Assembly: GCA_963833095.1 (NCBI GenBank)
Contig: CAWHWQ010000008.1
Span: 165,906-229,905, forward strand
Direction of reading: 5' to 3'
DNA length: 64,000 bases
From: Vulcanimicrobiota bacterium
GTDB lineage: Bacteria > Vulcanimicrobiota > Vulcanimicrobiia > Vulcanimicrobiales > Vulcanimicrobiaceae
Shown here: positions 4,868 to 16,384 of the stretch, piece after piece
Numbering within the stretch: position 1 is the stretch's first letter
Layout of the letters: each line of letters begins with the position of its first letter
The notes under the pieces: model-generated
What the model was told of the DNA's origin: nothing
The model's input: the letters and a program-made list of their open reading frames with translations, nothing else
The model's database searches: none
Position numbers and translations under genes: made by a program

Positions 4868-6457
4868 CTACAACGATAGCCATGTTGCCGTTGCCATTGC
4901 GCCGAGCAGTTGGCCATTGGCATGCGCGATGTCTTTGTCGTCGTAGATGCTGCTCTGCCCTTGCGTGCGATTGATGTAGAAGGCAAACGCCACGTGATGA
5001 CCGCTGCGCGTGGTCATATAACCAGCCAGACCTTTGGCGGTGATGATCGCGTTGTCGTTGAGCTCGTTGGGGCCGCCGAACGTTCCCGTCTTCGCAAAGA
5101 CCTTGCCTGCCGCGGGCGAGTCGTTTTGAATGTTGAAGAGCGTGCCGTCGACGCCCATGACCGGCAAGCCGTTGTGGAAATCGTCGTACCAGGGCTGCGT
5201 GCGCACCCAGGCGAGATAGTGCACCATGAAATCCGGCGTGAAGAAAGCCGATACGCCAAGGCCGTCGGTCATCGACGCGCTGTACACGTCGAGCCCCGCA
5301 TTCTGCAACATCTTGCGTTCCAGCGCGAAGCCTTGGGCGAGTAGATCGGTGTGCGGCGACGGCGCGAGATGAATGGCCCAGGTGTACGGCCCCATGGCCG
5401 CATGAAGATTGTCGCTGAGTTTGAGCGTGATGCGCACGTCCTGCGCGAGCGGAGGCGACGTGTGCGATGCGACCAGATTCGCGGCGGTGTAACTCACTTT
5501 CGCCGTGGCCGGATCGAACGGTTCGGCATCTGCCGGAACGGTCACCGTAATCCCAGCGTCCTGCAAAACACTCGCGAACGCCATCTGCGCGAAGACGTCC
5601 GGATTTGGAACGCGATAGGCAAAGAGTATCGTCGGTCCCGCCGGGATTGCACCGTTGATGGTCACGATGTGCGAACCGTTTGGTTGGGTAACGTCGTTGC
5701 TCATGTCGATCGTCGGCTCGCCACCTGCCGCGCTCGTCGTTGCGTGGTTGACGAAGCTTACGTACGGCGTTTGCGGCGAGACGGAAATGCTTGCAGCATC
5801 GCCGGCGCGCGCGCCCGGCGCGATCGTGACGTCGACGACGTTATCGTTGAGGATCATCGGCGAAACCATCGTTCCCGTGCCGCCCTCGGGGCCCGGACTT
5901 GCAAAGAGCGATGCGTCGACCGCGACGCGACCGTGGATCGCTTTCACGCCGCTCGCCTTTACTTGCGCGGCGAGCTGACGCAGCACGATCAACGAATCGC
6001 CCGGCACCGCCTTCGTGTGCGGCAAACCGTCATACGCGTGATCTTCGTTCTCGAACGCCAACGTGCCATCGGGCTGGATGCGCTGCGAGATGTTCGGATC
6101 GCCGCTCGCGACCAAAACCACATCACCCTGCAGCGTGCCGGCCGCATCGACCGGACCGGTGCGATAGACCGGCGTCGTCCAGCGGAATCCCGGACCAAGC
6201 AACGCAAGGCTCGTGCCTTCGGTGAGCAGCTTGGTCGTCGACGCGGCCTCCATATACGTTTGCGCGTTACGCGCAAAGAGCACGCGGTGTGTGTCGAGGT
6301 CGTAGACCTCGCCCGCGACGATCGCATGGCGCAGAAGCGGTGTGGCAAGGATTTGCCTCATTGTTACAGGCGGCGTGTTGTCCACCGCAGCAACGAGGGC
6401 GCTCAAAGCAAGCAGCAGCACAAGCAATCGCTGGTTCATCTGGCGGTGGTTCTCCAA
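4868..6457 (-). CDS. dacB: D-alanyl-D-alanine carboxypeptidase/endopeptidase (peptidase S13, PBP4)
   Basis: SxxK (ASTTKL), SxN (LSDN) and KTG (AKTGT) motifs; LVASGDP; signal peptide (start may be 6439). Confidence 0.9.
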   Translation of the reverse strand: MENHRQMNQRLLVLLLALSALVAAVDNTPPVTMRQILATPLLRHAIVAGEVYDLDTHRVLFARNAQTYMEAASTTKLLTEGTSLALLGPGFRWTTPVYRTGPVDAAGTLQGDVVLVASGDPNISQRIQPDGTLAFENEDHAYDGLPHTKAVPGDSLIVLRQLAAQVKASGVKAIHGRVAVDASLFASPGPEGGTGTMVSPMILNDNVVDVTIAPGARAGDAASISVSPQTPYVSFVNHATTSAAGGEPTIDMSNDVTQPNGSHIVTINGAIPAGPTILFAYRVPNPDVFAQMAFASVLQDAGITVTVPADAEPFDPATAKVSYTAANLVASHTSPPLAQDVRITLKLSDNLHAAMGPYTWAIHLAPSPHTDLLAQGFALERKMLQNAGLDVYSASMTDGLGVSAFFTPDFMVHYLAWVRTQPWYDDFHNGLPVMGVDGTLFNIQNDSPAAGKVFAKTGTFGGPNELNDNAIITAKGLAGYMTTRSGHHVAFAFYINRTQGQSSIYDDKDIAHANGQLLGAMATATWLSL

Positions 6458-7233: not shown

Positions 7234-8238
7234 TTAGAGCAGACGCATCGCGCGTTTGACGTCGGCCAATACCACGGCGGCAATCTCGCGCGTGCGTGCC
7301 GTCCCTTCCTCGATGATCCGCTCGACCTGCATTGGATCGGCGCGATAGATCGTGAGGCGCTCGCGCACCGGACGCAGATACTCGTTGAGTTGTTCGGCAA
7401 AGTCGCCCTTATCCGCGACGCATCCAAGCGCGCCTGAGCGGCACTCTGCGGCGATACCGTCGACCTTGAGCGGATTGACGAATTTCCACAACGCAAAGAC
7501 CGGGCAGACTTCGGGACGGCCGGGATCGCCGCGCCGAATTTTTTGTGGATCGGTAACCATCGAGCGGACTTTTTTCGTCGTCGTTTCGTCGTCGTCGGCG
7601 ATGAGGATTGCGTTGTCGTATGATTTCGACATCTTGCGCCCGTCGGTGCCGGGCACTTCGGCAAATTCGGTCAGCGTCGGATGCGGTTCCACGAGCACCT
7701 CCGCGCCGTTGCCGTAAAGATAATTGAAGCGCCGCACGACTTCGCGCCCGAGTTCGAGGTGCGCGACTTGATCGCGACCGACCGGCACGCGTTCGCCGCG
7801 CACGATCGCCACGTCGCACAATTGTAGCAGCGGATAGCCCAAGAAGCCGGCGGTGGCAATCTGCGCGCCGAGTGCCTCGATCTGACTTTTGAACGTCGGC
7901 ACGCGCTCGAGCCACGAGATCGGCGTGATCATCGAGAGCAACGTGTACAGTTCGGAGATCTCGGGCACTGCCGATTGCAAAAAGATCGTCGACTTGTTGG
8001 GATCGACGCCGGCGGCGAGCCAGACCGCGACCATCTCGTTGCGCGCATCGCGAATCGCTTGCGGGTCTTCAAAGCCGGTCGTATACGCGTGCAAATCGGC
8101 GATTTCGAAATAGGCGTCGGCCGTATCGCAATAATTCGCCCATTGGGTCAGCACGCCCACGAGATGGCCGAGATGTAGTCCGCCGGTCGGGCGCATACCC
8201 GACATCACGCGTGGTTTAGCTTCAGTCGCGCTCGTCAT
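7234..8238 (-). CDS. trpS: Tryptophanyl-tRNA synthetase
   Basis: SGMRPTGGLHLGH (HIGH-like), YPLLQ, VPVGRDQVAH, GRKMSKS. Confidence 0.97.
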   Translation of the reverse strand: MTSATEAKPRVMSGMRPTGGLHLGHLVGVLTQWANYCDTADAYFEIADLHAYTTGFEDPQAIRDARNEMVAVWLAAGVDPNKSTIFLQSAVPEISELYTLLSMITPISWLERVPTFKSQIEALGAQIATAGFLGYPLLQLCDVAIVRGERVPVGRDQVAHLELGREVVRRFNYLYGNGAEVLVEPHPTLTEFAEVPGTDGRKMSKSYDNAILIADDDETTTKKVRSMVTDPQKIRRGDPGRPEVCPVFALWKFVNPLKVDGIAAECRSGALGCVADKGDFAEQLNEYLRPVRERLTIYRADPMQVERIIEEGTARTREIAAVVLADVKRAMRLL

Positions 8239-13167: not shown

Positions 13168-13261
13168 CGCCTCCTATCGTATCAGGACGGTTCCATGCCG
13201 CTTCGCGGCGCCGCACATCCTGTGCTCGGAACCTTCCTCACCATCCTGGCGATCGCGAAAA

Positions 13262-13277
13262 TGTTCCCCGTGAAACA
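13262..13277. promoter_or_regulatory. parS site 1
   Basis: TGTTCCCCGTGAAACA, 14/16 to the consensus TGTTTCACGTGAAACA; upstream of cca-parA-parB. Confidence 0.8.
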
Positions 13278-13443
13278 TTTGGTGATTATCCCTTGACCGC
13301 ACGTATCCGGCGGAAAGGATTTTTCGCCATTCCAGGTTGGAACGGCGCTGAAAAGCGACTCATCTGAGAGGATTCTCACTCCTGTTGAAACCGAAATTGG
13401 ACCAACGTAGACTTGAGGCATCAGGGCTAAGGAGGCCCAAGCT

Positions 13444-13632
13444 ATGATGCCCGCAGACGAACCCTTCGCTGTGACCAGAGTGATCGGCACCGCCCACGAT
13501 TTGGTTCAAATGCTTCGTGGCTACGGTCAACCCGCAGTTACTCCAAGCGCGGTCGTTGACGGCAAGAGCCTCAAGGACGCGCTGCTGGGCCTGCGGAGCG
13601 TTATCGACGAATTCTTAGCGGGGAAGCTCTAA
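13444..13632 (+). CDS. Small hypothetical passenger protein (62 aa)
   Basis: AAGGAGG RBS upstream; amphipathic C-terminal helix LKDALLGLRSVIDEFLAGKL. Confidence 0.6.
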   Translation: MMPADEPFAVTRVIGTAHDLVQMLRGYGQPAVTPSAVVDGKSLKDALLGLRSVIDEFLAGKL

Positions 13633-13750
13633 GAATCGCGTTCCGATTCCGCCTTAGCTACCTCTGCCGCCGCAAGCTTGCCGTACCAGGTAAGGAACTC
13701 CTCGCTGTGCTCGACGCCGAAAGCGATGATCGACCTCGGCGACAGCCTTT

Positions 13751-13903
13751 TTACTCAGCCGTTTCTTTAACGCGGAGCCGGATTGCGAGCAGCTTGCGGT
13801 TCTCGTCCTCAGTAAGTTCGGGACGGCTAATCTCGACGAGATTTTCAAGTTCGTCCTCATCCGGATCGCGAGCTTTGCGCGTTCGTTTGGCCTTCTCTTC
13901 CAC
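13751..13903 (-). CDS. Small charged hypothetical passenger protein (50 aa, possibly longer via indel)
   Basis: Hand translation MEEKAKRTRKARDPDEDELENLVEISRPELTEDENRKLLAIRLRVKETAE; a protein-like frame (LSPRSIIAFGVEHSEEFLTWYGKLAAAEVAKAESERDS) continues past an A5 run to about 13629. Confidence 0.4.
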   Translation of the reverse strand: MEEKAKRTRKARDPDEDELENLVEISRPELTEDENRKLLAIRLRVKETAE

Positions 13904-14103
13904 GGGAAGGCCACTATAGCACGTTGATCCGCGAATTTGCTTCGATCATCCGCAAAAAGAGCAGGATAGCGGATTTTCCTCGGGGAACAGCATCGAACAC
14001 ACGGTCGCGAGGATGAAGCCTACGCTTCGCCCAAACGGCCAAGTCCCGAAAGGGAAGGGCGCCAACGTTGCAACGCTGACGCCCATTGGACCGGTTCTGG
14101 GAC

Positions 14104-14176
14104 CTCCCGGGGTCGGAATCGAACCGACAGCCTGACCATGGACAGTGGACCGCTCTACCATTGAGCTACACCGGGA
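14104..14176 (-). tRNA. Atypical tRNA-like gene, anticodon GTC (Asp), inside the transposon
   Basis: Minus strand TCCCGGTG-TA-GCTC-AATGGTA-GAGC-G-GTCCA-CTGTCCA-TGGTC-AGGCT-GTCGG-TTCGATT-CCGAC-CCCGGGA-G. Canonical D and T arms; bulged acceptor stem, T-T mismatch in the anticodon stem, C37, no encoded CCA. Confidence 0.8.
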
Positions 14177-14268
14177 TCAAGGAACGAGGGCGAGGCCGCC
14201 AGCCTCGCCTTTTCCTATCCAAGGGTCCCGTTGCGTCGTTACTCTGCCCGAGTGCCCACTCCTTGTGA

Positions 14269-14296
14269 TCGACCTGTGGATAGACCGCAATATAAT
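14269..14296 (+). promoter_or_regulatory. Candidate sigma70 promoter for the transposase
   Basis: TCGACC (14269-14274), 16-nt spacer, TATAAT (14291-14296), about 110 bp upstream of the transposase ATG. Confidence 0.45.
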
Positions 14297-14408
14297 GTGC
14301 ACGTTGTGTGCAGGAGCTTCAAAAACACAAGATATAGCGGGTCGATTTTCTCCCTGACCGCACGTAAAATGCCAACCAGGTGGCATGTCGGCCACCTAGC
14401 TTAGAAGC

Positions 14409-15329
14409 ATGGCTTCTAAGACGAACCTGGCCCCCGTGCAAAAGTATACGTTCAAGGATTTCGAGCAAGACTTCCCAACCGAGCGCGCATGCATGGAATG
14501 GCTGCTGGAGCACTTCTATCCCTACGGCATCCATTGCCTGACCTGCGGTGAGGTCCGGCCTCACCATCTGCTCAAGACTCGCCCGAAGGTCGCCTCATGC
14601 GACTACTGCGGGTCGCACACACATCCGACAGCCGGTACGATCTTCCACAAGTCGCGCACGTCGCTGCGGACGTGGTTCCACGCGATCTTCCTGATGAGCG
14701 CCACCCGATGCGGAATCTCGGCCATGCAACTAATGCGCGAAACCGGCGTCACCTACAAGACTGCCTGGCGCATGTTCAATCAGATTCGCGCCATGCTCGC
14801 CGAGAACGTCGTGCTCGAAGGCAAGGTCGAAGCGGACGAGACCTACATGGGCGGCTACAAGCGCGGCAAGAAGTATCGCGCCGGTGTCGGCAAGACCGTT
14901 GTCGCTGGTGCGGTCGAACGTGGCGGCAAAGTGTTCGCGTACCTGCCGAAAGACGGACGCGATGGCTACGAATTAACCGAGAACATTCGAGCGCGCGTGA
15001 TGCCCGAAACAATGATCTTCACGGACGAGGCGCTTCAATACAGTCGTCTGTCACGCATGGGCCAAGGCTATCTTCACCGTCGCATCCATCACGCGCAAAA
15101 AGTATATGTGCGCGGCGACGTGCATACGAATACGATCGAGGGGTTCTGGTCGTTAGTAAAAGGCGGGATTCGCGGGGTGTATCACTCGGTCTCCGCCAAG
15201 CATTTGCAAGGGTACCTGAACGAATACACCTTTCGCTACAATCACCGCGACGACGCGCGTCCTATGTTTAGGACTTTTTGCTCGAACGTCCGGAAGGACT
15301 TTGTGGCGATTCGCCGTCGCGTCGTCTAA
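14409..15329 (+). CDS. IS1595-family DDE transposase (ISXO2-like) with N-terminal zinc ribbon
   Basis: CLTCG...CDYCG, TAGTIFHKSR, GISAMQL..GVTYKTAW, VEADETYMGG, FTDE, HTNTIEGFWSLVK, YLNEYTFRYNHR; uninterrupted. Confidence 0.96.
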   Translation: MASKTNLAPVQKYTFKDFEQDFPTERACMEWLLEHFYPYGIHCLTCGEVRPHHLLKTRPKVASCDYCGSHTHPTAGTIFHKSRTSLRTWFHAIFLMSATRCGISAMQLMRETGVTYKTAWRMFNQIRAMLAENVVLEGKVEADETYMGGYKRGKKYRAGVGKTVVAGAVERGGKVFAYLPKDGRDGYELTENIRARVMPETMIFTDEALQYSRLSRMGQGYLHRRIHHAQKVYVRGDVHTNTIEGFWSLVKGGIRGVYHSVSAKHLQGYLNEYTFRYNHRDDARPMFRTFCSNVRKDFVAIRRRVV

Positions 15330-15453
15330 CAGCCTTACCGAGATCACGCATGAAATCCTCACGCGTGAACGATTCTAGACCTTGCGTTTTCATAGCAGCC
15401 AACGAATCCTTACTTGTTGCCGAATTGCTGCCTTGGTTTATGAGGTCTGTCAT
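15268..15453 (-). CDS. Small convergent passenger ORF overlapping the transposase 3' end
   Basis: 61 aa with AGGA RBS; amphipathic FTREDFMRDLGKAVRR; directly downstream of the Ntn-hydrolase gene. Confidence 0.5.
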   Translation of the reverse strand: MTDLINQGSNSATSKDSLAAMKTQGLESFTREDFMRDLGKAVRRRDGESPQSPSGRSSKKS

Positions 15454-15461
15454 AATGGTTC

Positions 15462-16269
15462 CTAACTTCTCTTCTCACCGAGTATTTGCTTTATTTGCAC
15501 GGGTTTGAAAGCCATCCATCCGCGTGATGGTCGCGACGTCTATGGCCCCTCCAACCCCGCGAACTCCGATCATCCACTGCTGTAGTGTTATCGTCACCCG
15601 AAGCATAGAAATAACTACGTCGATGCAGTCCTGAAGGGGAAGAAACTGCCAAGGGATAGGTAAGGCGAACTGCTCCTTAAGCTTCTTTTCAAGGTCAGGG
15701 TCGTGCTTTCCGAGGATGTTCTCTACCACTTCAGGTAAGCGGAAATCGAAGCCCTGAATCAGCCGATCTACCACCTCGCGTTGACCGCCCCACTGCACCC
15801 CAAAGTCCGGTAGGCTTTCCACGGGCTTGAGATTTATTGGGACCTTCACCTCAAATGCGCGCCCGTATGGAGCGCCTTCGTCATAACCGGCCACGAAGAA
15901 AATCATCTCTTGGCCTTGCGGGGGGTTCGGGTCCATGCCCGCTTTCTTCCATTGCTTATCAAAGAAAGCGCCAAGGCGCTCGGCGAATTGTTCGACGGAG
16001 AGCCGCTGCGCCCCGATTTCAGTGTCGAACTCGGGCATAAAGCTGACTGCCGTTCGAGGCTCATTTTGACCGATGACCCCGGCGCCAAAGGTGACCGCAG
16101 CCACATACGGCTGAGCCTTTGAGGTTAGCAGCTTACTCGCGTGGTCGTAGGTCGCAGGAATGAGGACCTGTTGTCCATTTGGCAGTTGCTGCATTACCGT
16201 TAAGGTGACCCGGCTGTCGGCGGCGAGCACGATCCCTTCCGGGCCTTTAAACACAAGTCCGAGAGACAT
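15462..16269 (-). CDS. Proteasome-beta-like Ntn-hydrolase (passenger gene)
   Basis: Real start ATG 16269: M-SLGLVFKGPEGIVLAADSRVT...KL, FFVAGYD, LQDCID, GVGGAIDVATIT. As read it stops at 15475; one indel near 15510 would give GFKPVQIKQILGEKRS* ending at 15462. Confidence 0.75.
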
Positions 16270-16368
16270 GGGCGGGTATTGTAGCACGGCACGCTCGGCG
16301 GCTGCCATGGGCCGTAGGTCGGTGCGGTTACGTGCCGTGCGGGGATAATCACCAAACATTTTCGCAAT

Positions 16369-16384
16369 TGTTTCACGGGGAACG
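16369..16384. promoter_or_regulatory. parS site 2
   Basis: TGTTTCACGGGGAACG; reverse complement CGTTCCCCGTGAAACA, 15/16 identical to parS site 1. Confidence 0.75.

Follow-up and report, generated by a model that had tools for sequence, protein, structure and literature searches.

Results

A complete IS1595-family element in the spacer beside cca

The DNA analysed here is a stretch of 64,000 nucleotides (hereafter the window) from a Vulcanimicrobiota bacterium (GenBank assembly GCA_963833095.1, contig CAWHWQ010000008.1, positions 165,906 to 229,905), in which a complete IS1595-family insertion sequence (IS) of 3,073 bp occupies window positions 13281–16353. An intact transposase gene lies in the middle of this element. 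A tRNA gene and two small open reading frames (ORF62 and ORF50) are located on its left, and on its right are a small convergent gene (ORF61) and a gene encoding a predicted N-terminal nucleophile (Ntn) hydrolase with a proteasome-beta fold (Table 1). The original prediction, made from the sequence alone, had proposed an element with these boundaries, an uninterrupted transposase and passenger genes on both sides of it, and all of these features are present. We consider it likely that the interval is an intact, recently mobile transporter IS, an IS1595-family element with passenger genes, whose contents fall into three layers: a core common to its lineage, a cargo slot and an additional left arm.

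Table 1. Features of the element and its immediate flanks (window coordinates)
Feature	Position	Strand	Remarks
parS-like 16-mer, left of the insertion	13262–13277		overlaps the target-site duplication by 5 bases
Target-site duplication, left copy	13273–13280		AAACATTT; 8 bp, exact
Outer left inverted repeat (IRL)	13281–13305	+	GGTGATTATCCCTTGACCGCACGTA
Promoter-like site of ORF62	13385–13413
ORF62, small passenger ORF	13444–13632	+	62 aa; AAGGAGG-type ribosome site
ORF50, small passenger ORF	13751–13903	-	50 aa; TATAGT box just upstream
Terminator-like hairpin	14057–14084	-	12 pairs, T-rich tail; directly after the tRNA
Passenger tRNA, anticodon GUC	14104–14176	-	U1-A72, G73, C37; no encoded CCA
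Hairpin followed by TTTT	14188–14213	+	between the tRNA and the transposase promoter region; read by eye, unlisted by the terminator scan
Promoter-like site of the transposase gene	14269–14296
Inner, decayed IRL copy	14340–14366	+	14/15 in a direct-repeat pair; 43 bp before the transposase ATG
IS1595-family DDE transposase	14409–15329	+	306 aa, intact
ORF61, small basic protein with TRxxF helix motif	15268–15453	-	61 aa
Ntn hydrolase, predicted proteasome-beta fold	15475–16269	-	264 aa; start MSLG
Promoter box of the Ntn gene	16278–16286		TGCTACAAT; 8 nt before the ATG
Right inverted repeat (IRR)	16329–16353	-	reverse complement reads GGTGATTATCCCCGCACGGCACGTA
Target-site duplication, right copy	16354–16361		AAACATTT; 8 bp, exact
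parS-like 16-mer, right of the insertion	16369–16384

The left and right inverted repeats (IRs) are 25 bp long and agree at 21 of 25 positions when the right one is reverse-complemented, both ends of the element start with GGTGATTAT, and an exact target-site duplication (TSD) of 8 bp flanks them. G+C content is 0.51–0.60 within the element and 0.62–0.69 in the flanks. The host genome, a metagenome-assembled genome (MAG) of 2.8 Mb in 8 contigs that is 80.7% complete, contains a single copy. In a survey of the genus, the cca flank could be located in 16 of the 17 other genomes and the spacer to the neighbouring amidotransferase gene could be read in nine. The congeners G016 (locus L125) and G010 (L129) carry the empty site, in which both flanks of the window are matched and the 8-mer is present in one copy. 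The corresponding joint was also found in public contigs from four DNA runs of one study, which we mapped onto the element region. Contigs of runs X1, X3 and X4 join position 13272 directly to 16354, skipping 3,081 bases and sharing 8 letters, and the X3 contig carries this joint with no differences. In run X1, the filled site is covered in 30 of 30 bins and the empty-site joint is present too. The passenger genes vanish together with the element at the empty-site joint, both in the congeners and in the public contigs. Since filled and empty alleles co-exist, the insertion is recent and the site polymorphic, with precise loss of the element as the alternative explanation of the same data. The recent insertion put forward in the original prediction is therefore borne out by an empty-site allele in runs of the same study. 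Given the empty sites and the contig joint, the interval is more than a product of chance.

The transposase and its family

Assignment of the transposase to the IS1595 family, as first predicted, is well founded, since the protein matches Pfam PF12762 (DDE_Tnp_IS1595; E 7.2e-34, 117.4 bits, cut-off 27) and NCBIfam NF033547 (IS1595 family transposase; 186.8 bits, cut-off 75). Residues D143, D206, E244 and K251 are invariant across an alignment of 23 relatives, from which the row of locus L061 was left out because it contains an in-frame stop. Four cysteines (C43, C46, C64 and C67) are likewise invariant in the 23 relatives, and the zinc-ribbon family PF12760 is matched at 19.9 bits, under its cut-off of 25.4. 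The closest plasmid-borne IS1595 transposase is 39.9% identical, and all 367 such records fall below 60%.

Judged by its GGnnATTAT ends, its TSD length of 8 bp and an E-x6-K spacing, the element presumably belongs to the ISNwi1 group of ISfinder. Longer members of this group carry passenger genes. With ISNwi1-type transporter ISs the element shares passenger genes enclosed by its IRs, ends of the GGnnATTAT type, a TSD of 8 bp and an ISXO2/IS1595-type DDE transposase, probably including the four-Cys region at the N-terminus of the latter. Its double IRL and left arm set it apart and are unusual even within its own lineage. Cargo-bearing IS1595-family elements are already known, 'transporter IS' being an established kind in the literature (PMC3129680, which cites Siguier et al. 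2009 for it). In PMC9569102, by contrast, IS1595 appears only as part of a census. The constant convergent small ORF, the protease-rich slot and the mismatched tRNA cargo of the lineage, described below, were not found in print, an absence that is provisional.

Architecture of the lineage and the added left arm

A scan of one genome per species returned 105 relatives, 80 of which were kept, giving 81 loci together with that of the window. Elements were delimited by IRs of the GGnnAnTATCCC type (at least 14 of 20 positions matching) in combination with an exact 8-bp TSD. This rule bounded 32 of the 81 loci, whose ends begin GGnnAnTATCCC. The 32 elements range from 1,620 to 4,554 bp, sizes which imply that every one of them has cargo and that none is a bare IS. 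In 29 of them the IRL lies 38–106 bp before the transposase match and the cargo is all to the right; in the remaining three it lies more than 700 bp before the match.

The element in the window has two copies of IRL. The inner, decayed copy is in the position of the sole IRL of the relatives, and the outer copy, 1.06 kb further out, is both the better one (23 of 24 positions identical to the IRL of the G225 element, a typical relative) and the end actually used. With an IRL on either side, the left arm is thus an addition to the element. When 301 genomes of the order were searched at the DNA level for its source, only short weak matches came back, and no inner IRR was seen by eye past the transposase stop. 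Of the small ORFs in the arm, ORF62 has a sole detected homologue (66% identity). The TATAGT box of ORF50 is shared by a related element in genome G017, where it precedes a different small ORF. Neither these two ORFs nor ORF61 has a family match in Pfam, NCBIfam, PADLOC or PHROG. A candidate toxin–antitoxin remnant at 13640–13914 was dropped, as no family supports it.

The transposase gene of the G017 element has lost approximately 205 bp (corresponding to window 14529–14733, including the Cys region) and is split into ORFs of 45 and 207 aa (L120, contig G017:C65, 1244–1363 and 651–1274). Judged from its sequence, this element is no longer autonomous, yet its tRNA cloverleaf is perfect. IS1595 relatives are often situated right beside host tRNA genes, examples being those at L056, L059 and L086.

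A small convergent gene shared by the lineage

An AGGA site stands 7 nt upstream of the ATG of ORF61. The gene converges with that of the transposase and covers, on the opposite strand, the final 62 bases of the transposase gene. The stretch immediately past the transposase stop codes for ..FTREDFMRDLGKAV.., an example of a lineage peptide that many relatives encode in the corresponding position and orientation and that consists of T-R/K-x-x-F followed by Leu and a Lys/Arg-rich stretch, often with AAQP at the end. We built a hidden Markov model (HMM) of this tail motif from 31 seed stretches, picked by a short pattern from the same loci. At E≤1e-3, 39 of the 81 loci have a convergent motif no more than 250 nt beyond the transposase match; among the others it is farther away in 3, represented by weak matches only in 20, and without a match in 19. 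Codon entropy in 41 distinct stretches of the motif is 1.80 at position 3, compared with 1.35 and 1.19 at positions 1 and 2, respectively.

In its free form, the motif belongs to a very basic protein of 39–96 aa. In five loci it is located near the C-terminus of a long open frame (237–390 aa), and in a sixth, L038, at the N-terminus of such a frame. The fused frames of L011, L020 and L046 have Trypsin_2 matches below the Pfam cut-off, the Trypsin_2 proteins of L017, L018, L042 and L075 contain a weaker copy of the motif, and a cargo protein of the G017 element is homologous to the L046 protein (E 5e-22), including its Ser motif and tail. By these sequence comparisons, the small ORF appears as a conserved feature of the lineage, either free or fused to the C-terminus of a passenger protease. 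The in-frame fusions in relatives argue that the tail peptide is likely to be translated and to act together with the neighbouring cargo.

Frequent proteases in the cargo slot

To the right of the small gene, the lineage carries variable cargo. Of 53 convergent ORFs that follow the transposase gene in relatives, 20 have a Pfam match, 12 of them to protease families: Trypsin_2 in nine cases (five above the Pfam cut-off), Asp_protease in one (L009), the proteasome family PF00227 in one (L028, 6.1e-7) and a ClpP-like SDH protease in one (L052). The other eight comprise DUF3800 (three), NYN (two), a Dam-type methylase, a GNAT protein and an ATP-grasp enzyme. Four unrelated protease folds thus share one slot, and the model of the window protein, presented below, predicts the same fold as that of L028.

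The original prediction had suggested that this combination of cargo may be an undescribed mobile module for defence, translation or transposition control. A single co-occurring module is not supported, since the parts of the cargo recur separately. Relatives with a tRNA arm bear other right-hand cargo (a trypsin-like protease in G017, an aspartyl protease and a DUF3800-like gene in L009/L116), and the relatives with an Ntn gene are without a tRNA. Random cargo with no recurring RNA or hydrolase, the outcome that would have refuted the original prediction, was not what the relatives show: a protease or hydrolase recurs among them, and tRNAs do so in a minority of elements. A search of PADLOC-DB 2.0 with six proteins of the element at E≤1 gave no credible match for any of the six, the sole row being WYL (E 0.009) on the transposase.

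A proteasome-beta-type hydrolase with serine in the nucleophile position

The start of the Ntn gene (MSLG) was fixed by alignment with 24 homologues, the longest open frame reaching 16440; with this start, the gene lies wholly inside the IRs. The promoter box close to its ATG suggests that the gene may have its own promoter and a leaderless or near-leaderless message. The protein has no match in Pfam at E≤0.1, including PF00227, none in NCBIfam or PADLOC, and none in the PDB by sequence at E≤10. A comparison with PHROG gave a weak match to a function-unassigned PHROG only, and its ESM Atlas clusters are labelled 'hypothetical protein', one of them with PF00227 on 15% of its members.

The fold was examined with an AlphaFold (AF2) model, which has a mean predicted local distance difference test score (pLDDT) of 83.7. 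Foldseek returned at least 500 matches to this model in the PDB at E≤0.001, and the rows listed are all 20S proteasome, with a best E of 5e-9. In an all-against-all structure alignment (VIA), the highest Z score was obtained with 20S beta (18.2; root-mean-square deviation 3.0, 184 aligned), followed by Anbu (17.1), mycobacterial PrcB (15.6), BPH (12.5) and HslV (11.5), and Z was 7–11 against other Ntn hydrolases. The likeness to proteasome beta in the original prediction thus stands at the level of the fold, and on the strength of the model the protein is classed as a proteasome-beta-type hydrolase by fold, outside peptidase family T1 as defined.

Residue 2 of the model is aligned with residue 1 (Thr1) of mature beta subunits, so that Ser2 of the family stands in the place of Thr1, and there is no propeptide. 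S2, K8, D18, S19, R20, T22 and K46 are invariant in 36 sequences of the family, and D18 and K46, which lie in matching sequence contexts, are candidate counterparts of proteasome-beta Asp17 and Lys33. The protein also contains a helical insert of approximately 70 residues, with helices at 164–234. It therefore shares the Ntn alpha-beta-beta-alpha fold with 20S beta, Anbu, BPH and HslV and differs from all four in its Ser for Thr1, the missing propeptide and the insert. Unlike the genes of bacterial proteasome-beta homologues, the Ntn gene stands alone: neither an alpha subunit nor HslU nor an Anbu-operon partner is encoded in its vicinity.

The family is large (1,686 matches, 52–61% identity), and every name shown is 'hypothetical protein'. 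Amongst 80 metagenome loci of the family, 6 have a transposase match close by, 4 of them in direct convergence (L181, L184, L200 and L217); both IS-type ends are present in L181 and L200, and 7 of the 80 loci have a tail ORF immediately after the Ntn gene. Ntn relatives occur in at least five other IS1595-type elements. L051 and L053 have the same gene order as the window, with the Ntn gene interrupted by another IS. In L051 (Longimicrobiales), a further repeated element splits the IS-borne gene at about codon 80, and two direct copies of approximately 690 bp, at 5681–6374 and 7465–8150, are 97.5% identical to each other. L051 and L053 share more than 7.5 kb at 98.7% identity, a comparison that was of no help in delimiting that element.

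Outside ISs, 41 neighbouring ORFs in 16 Ntn loci include toxins of the MazF type, the antitoxins SocA and CopG and a restriction–modification methylase, and further neighbours are IS1-like and other transposases, phage head genes and a ClpP-like protease. In both L165 (5555–6379) and L208 (5776–6624), a convergent ORF of approximately 280 aa comes after an Ntn-family gene. This ORF has weak matches to IS1/IS240-type DDE transposases and may encode a more remote transposase in an equivalent arrangement. In L172 (2773–7116), an Ntn-family gene sits between the phage major capsid and DUF4054 genes of a prophage-like head module. The window copy is on a long branch in a quick tree (0.85 versus a median of 0.28), and its last ~10 residues are off the family consensus.

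Non-canonical tRNA genes as passengers

The RNA in the left arm, first described as tRNA-like, is a tRNA, called as Asp/GTC by ARAGORN and scored at 49.2 bits by the Rfam tRNA model (gathering score 29). The terminator-like hairpin directly after it has a counterpart of other sequence in the same place after the tRNA of the G017 element, which also retains the stem of the hairpin on the transposase side of the tRNA, with a different loop. A consensus scan detected no promoter-like site upstream of the passenger tRNA.

Amongst the 41 tRNAs of the host, the closest to the passenger is tRNA-Asn (77% identity), with which it shares the 5' acceptor strand UCCCGGU and both U1-A72 and G73. The host tRNA-Asp (C4:94258), by comparison, has G1-C72 and A37, versus U1-A72 and C37 (anticodon loop CUGUCCA) in the passenger. 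We tentatively suggest from these likenesses that the passenger tRNA derives from a tRNA-Asn-type gene and may still be made as a folded tRNA. The G017 tRNA occupies the same place with other stems, all of them paired, and the loop CAGCUAA, and the spacer toward the transposase gene is about 93% identical in the two elements (alignment counted by eye). Diverged stems next to a conserved spacer imply that either the fold is under selection or sequence has been exchanged with other tRNA genes. Co-evolution of the IS tRNA with the tRNA-Asn of each host was rejected, since the host tRNA-Asn of G017 is 100% identical to that of the present host while the acceptor stem of its IS tRNA differs.

At a relaxed threshold, tRNA calls fall inside 5 of the 32 delimited elements; we take four as credible, although the L045 call is weak, and the remaining one, a 'tRNA-SeC' in L075 that lies within the transposase gene, as false. 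The tRNA of L009/L116 has anticodon GCC, A73 and a long variable arm (60.8 bits in L009). That of L013 (5673–5744), inside the IRs of an element in a Dehalococcoidia MAG, scores 62.9 bits and combines anticodon CUA with G3:U70, which we take to be the alanine mark, and could be an alanine-inserting amber suppressor. An S-adenosylmethionine (SAM) riboswitch is located approximately 1 kb past the right end of the L013 element. Overall, the passenger tRNAs score 49–63 bits, compared with 68–72 for three host tRNAs.

Phages and other mobile elements carry tRNA genes, and the case described here resembles theirs in that the tRNA lies within a mobile element and has its own terminator. It differs in its carrier, a 3-kb DDE element, and in the tRNAs themselves, which are single and non-canonical and vary in anticodon between close relatives. 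With regard to the synthesis of Asn-tRNA, none of 18 congeneric genomes, 11 of which are at least 90% complete, has asnS over the cut-off, versus 6 of 14 controls, and gatB is present in the host genome. The gatB match (G000:C1:131262–132686) is in four pieces in different frames, which suggests frameshifts or assembly errors.

Independent insertions next to a parS-like pair

The element has an AT-rich 8-mer as its target, within the spacer that separates cca from the amidotransferase gene, and is flanked there by the only two parS-like sites of the 64-kb window (up to 3 mismatches to the consensus). Counted over two strands, there are 4 matches versus 0.88 expected by chance, and in the empty site the two sites are 10 bp apart.

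The G017 element is in the same spacer in the opposite orientation, with its IRR-type end at the cca side and its IRL at the amidotransferase side, and its junction is about 1 base off that of the window (L127 about 380–395, L120 about 2102). The L009/L116 element lies between rsmG and cca, with the TSD GAATTGTT (L116 2884 and 6856), and a contig of run X3 joins the IRL to yet another flank, a fourth junction. The three related elements in three species and the X3 junction are independent insertions within about 20 bp. These insertions fall between or beside the adjacent parS-like pair, next to cca and near rsmG–mnmG. The TSDs of the relatives are mostly AT-rich, and in surroundings of 62–69% G+C this property alone may suffice for target choice; judged from the positions of the sites, insertion may also be drawn to the parS-like pair on a finer scale.

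A motif of approximately 25–60 nt upstream of cca (window 13184–13250, core 13212–13236) is present in many copies in the genome and the genus at 91–96% identity. Some copies stand directly after tRNA genes (C6:22752, C6:23446 and C3:162928), and three are in tandem with a period of 69 nt (C5:214218–214380). The motif may be a repeat similar to repetitive extragenic palindromic (REP) sequences, or an array repeat.

Discussion

A probable three-layered transporter IS

In the working that we propose, the DDE transposase would act on the outer IRL and the IRR and insert the whole 3,073 bp. The first layer, the core of the lineage, would consist of the IRL, the transposase gene and the convergent gene for the TRxxF small protein. 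The second layer would be the slot between this small gene and the IRR, filled here by a promoter-bearing Ntn hydrolase gene, the Ser nucleophile of the predicted enzyme presumably being exposed by simple removal of the initiator Met. The third layer would be the extra 1.06-kb left arm between the outer and the decayed inner IRL, with its tRNA and terminator and two small ORFs, most likely captured through the use of a second IRL copy further out.

Since the in-frame fusions join the two, it is a serious possibility, although we stop short of calling it probable, that the small protein is a constant accessory factor with which the protease in the slot works. That both would act on the transposase or transposition complex of the element itself is more doubtful. 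The one partner that is constant for the slot is the element itself, which makes us favour a role directed at its own transposase over one in conflict with the host, or over neutral baggage.

Several points weigh against the three-layered reading or parts of it. The element is present as a single copy in a genome that is 80.7% complete, and activity of its transposase is predicted from the intact frame. The tail-motif counts and the codon signal are partly circular, as the HMM seeds come from the same loci, and the motif is without a match in 19 of the 81 loci and represented only weakly in 20. Four of the nine Trypsin_2 matches in the slot are under the Pfam cut-off. Most Ntn homologues have no adjoining transposase (6 of 80 have one near, many of the contigs being short), and the IS-borne copies are scattered over the quick tree, forcing at least five changes, which implies repeated capture or loss rather than one fixed partnership. 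The passenger tRNA, finally, shows irregularities, namely C37, a U-U pair within the anticodon stem and, at the base of the acceptor stem, either a mismatch or a bulge of one base; its 49.2 bits compare with 67.6–72.4 for three host tRNAs.

Alternative readings of the cargo

The cargo could instead be a host-conflict module (defence or addiction) riding on the IS, in which the hydrolase would be an abortive-infection protease and the tRNA would counter anticodon nucleases as a decoy or a spare. The company kept by Ntn homologues outside ISs is of this kind (MazF, SocA, CopG, a restriction–modification methylase, transposases and phage head genes), as is other cargo of the slot (the three DUF3800 proteins, the two NYN nucleases, the Dam-type methylase and the GNAT protein), and the cargo genes have promoter-like boxes of their own. 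Against this stand the lack of a credible PADLOC match for the six element proteins and the dominance of proteases in the slot (12 of 20) next to a constant tail protein, which suggests a tie between the cargo and the element itself and not a random set of defence genes. We regard a host-conflict module as unlikely.

We judge it similarly unlikely that the cargo is neutral baggage, chromosomal DNA acquired from beside earlier insertion sites and by now subject to drift, its tRNA turning into a pseudogene. Such an origin would suit a left arm that lies between two IRL copies, a tRNA less canonical than those of the host, an ORF62 with one homologue, and an Ntn copy with a long branch and an aberrant C-terminus, as well as the frequent siting of IS1595 relatives beside host tRNA genes. 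Drift is harder to reconcile with the retention of all catalytic-type residues of the Ntn protein, of the cloverleaf and terminator between the window and G017 despite about 40% divergence, and of a coding signature in the tail ORF across the lineage, or with the recurrence of protease cargo in one slot.

A third reading concerns the tRNA, which might be a working recoding tRNA, charged with Asp and amidated by GatCAB so as to place Asn at Asp codons. Mistranslating tRNA-Pro variants with non-proline anticodons are found in Streptomyces and related bacteria. The IS tRNA is like them in that the marks on its body and its anticodon suggest different amino acids, and differs in that its gene is transposon-borne and would depend on the indirect Asn pathway of the host, with no dedicated synthetase. 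The GUC anticodon and G73 would allow charging with Asp, and U1-A72 and the short D-loop amidation. Bailly et al. (2006; PMC1635274) report that U1-A72 promotes amidation of Asp on tRNA and that G1-C72 and U20A prevent it. The nearest host tRNA, identical in the UCCCGGU strand, is tRNA-Asn, the host tRNA-Asp has G1-C72, and the genus lacks asnS over the cut-off in all 18 genomes with gatB present in the host, all of which would suit such a route. Mismatched marks also occur in the tRNAs of related elements (L013, L009), and the stem changes between the window and G017 are paired despite the conservation of the neighbouring spacer. However, C37, A38 in place of C38, the U-U pair and the irregular acceptor base may block charging or decoding, the G017 counterpart with A33 and anticodon GCU is not known to fit any charging rule, and the consensus scan showed no promoter-like site upstream. 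Replacement of Asp by Asn would furthermore be costly, with no evident benefit. On balance, a working recoding tRNA is improbable.

Finally, the IRL-like sequence at 14340–14366, at the usual distance before the transposase gene, might be read as the end of a shorter IS (14340–16353) beside unrelated host DNA, a reading we dismiss almost entirely given that the TSD flanks the outer IRL, which is the better copy, and that the congeneric empty sites and the contig joint remove exactly 13281–16353.

Implications of a cargo-bearing IS lineage

An IS is usually treated as a bare transposase between two ends, and the lineage described here always carries more. It is common in uncultured bacteria of soil and groundwater and combines a tiny conserved protein with a slot that has repeatedly gained proteases of unrelated fold. 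The repeated insertions within approximately 20 bp, between parS-like sites near rsmG/mnmG, suggest targeting finer than AT-richness. For the Ser-type relatives of proteasome beta, a large unannotated family, the elements provide a first recurring genomic context. The unusual tRNAs, if functional, would be the first case of recoding tRNAs carried by a transposon. In its boldest form, which we consider very improbable, the lineage would be one of transposons with a built-in accessory system, in which the TRxxF protein recruits an interchangeable protease and several branches have added a recoding tRNA that, in the element studied here, would impose Asp-to-Asn mistranslation. Were this true, such a transposon would be a mobile device that alters decoding.

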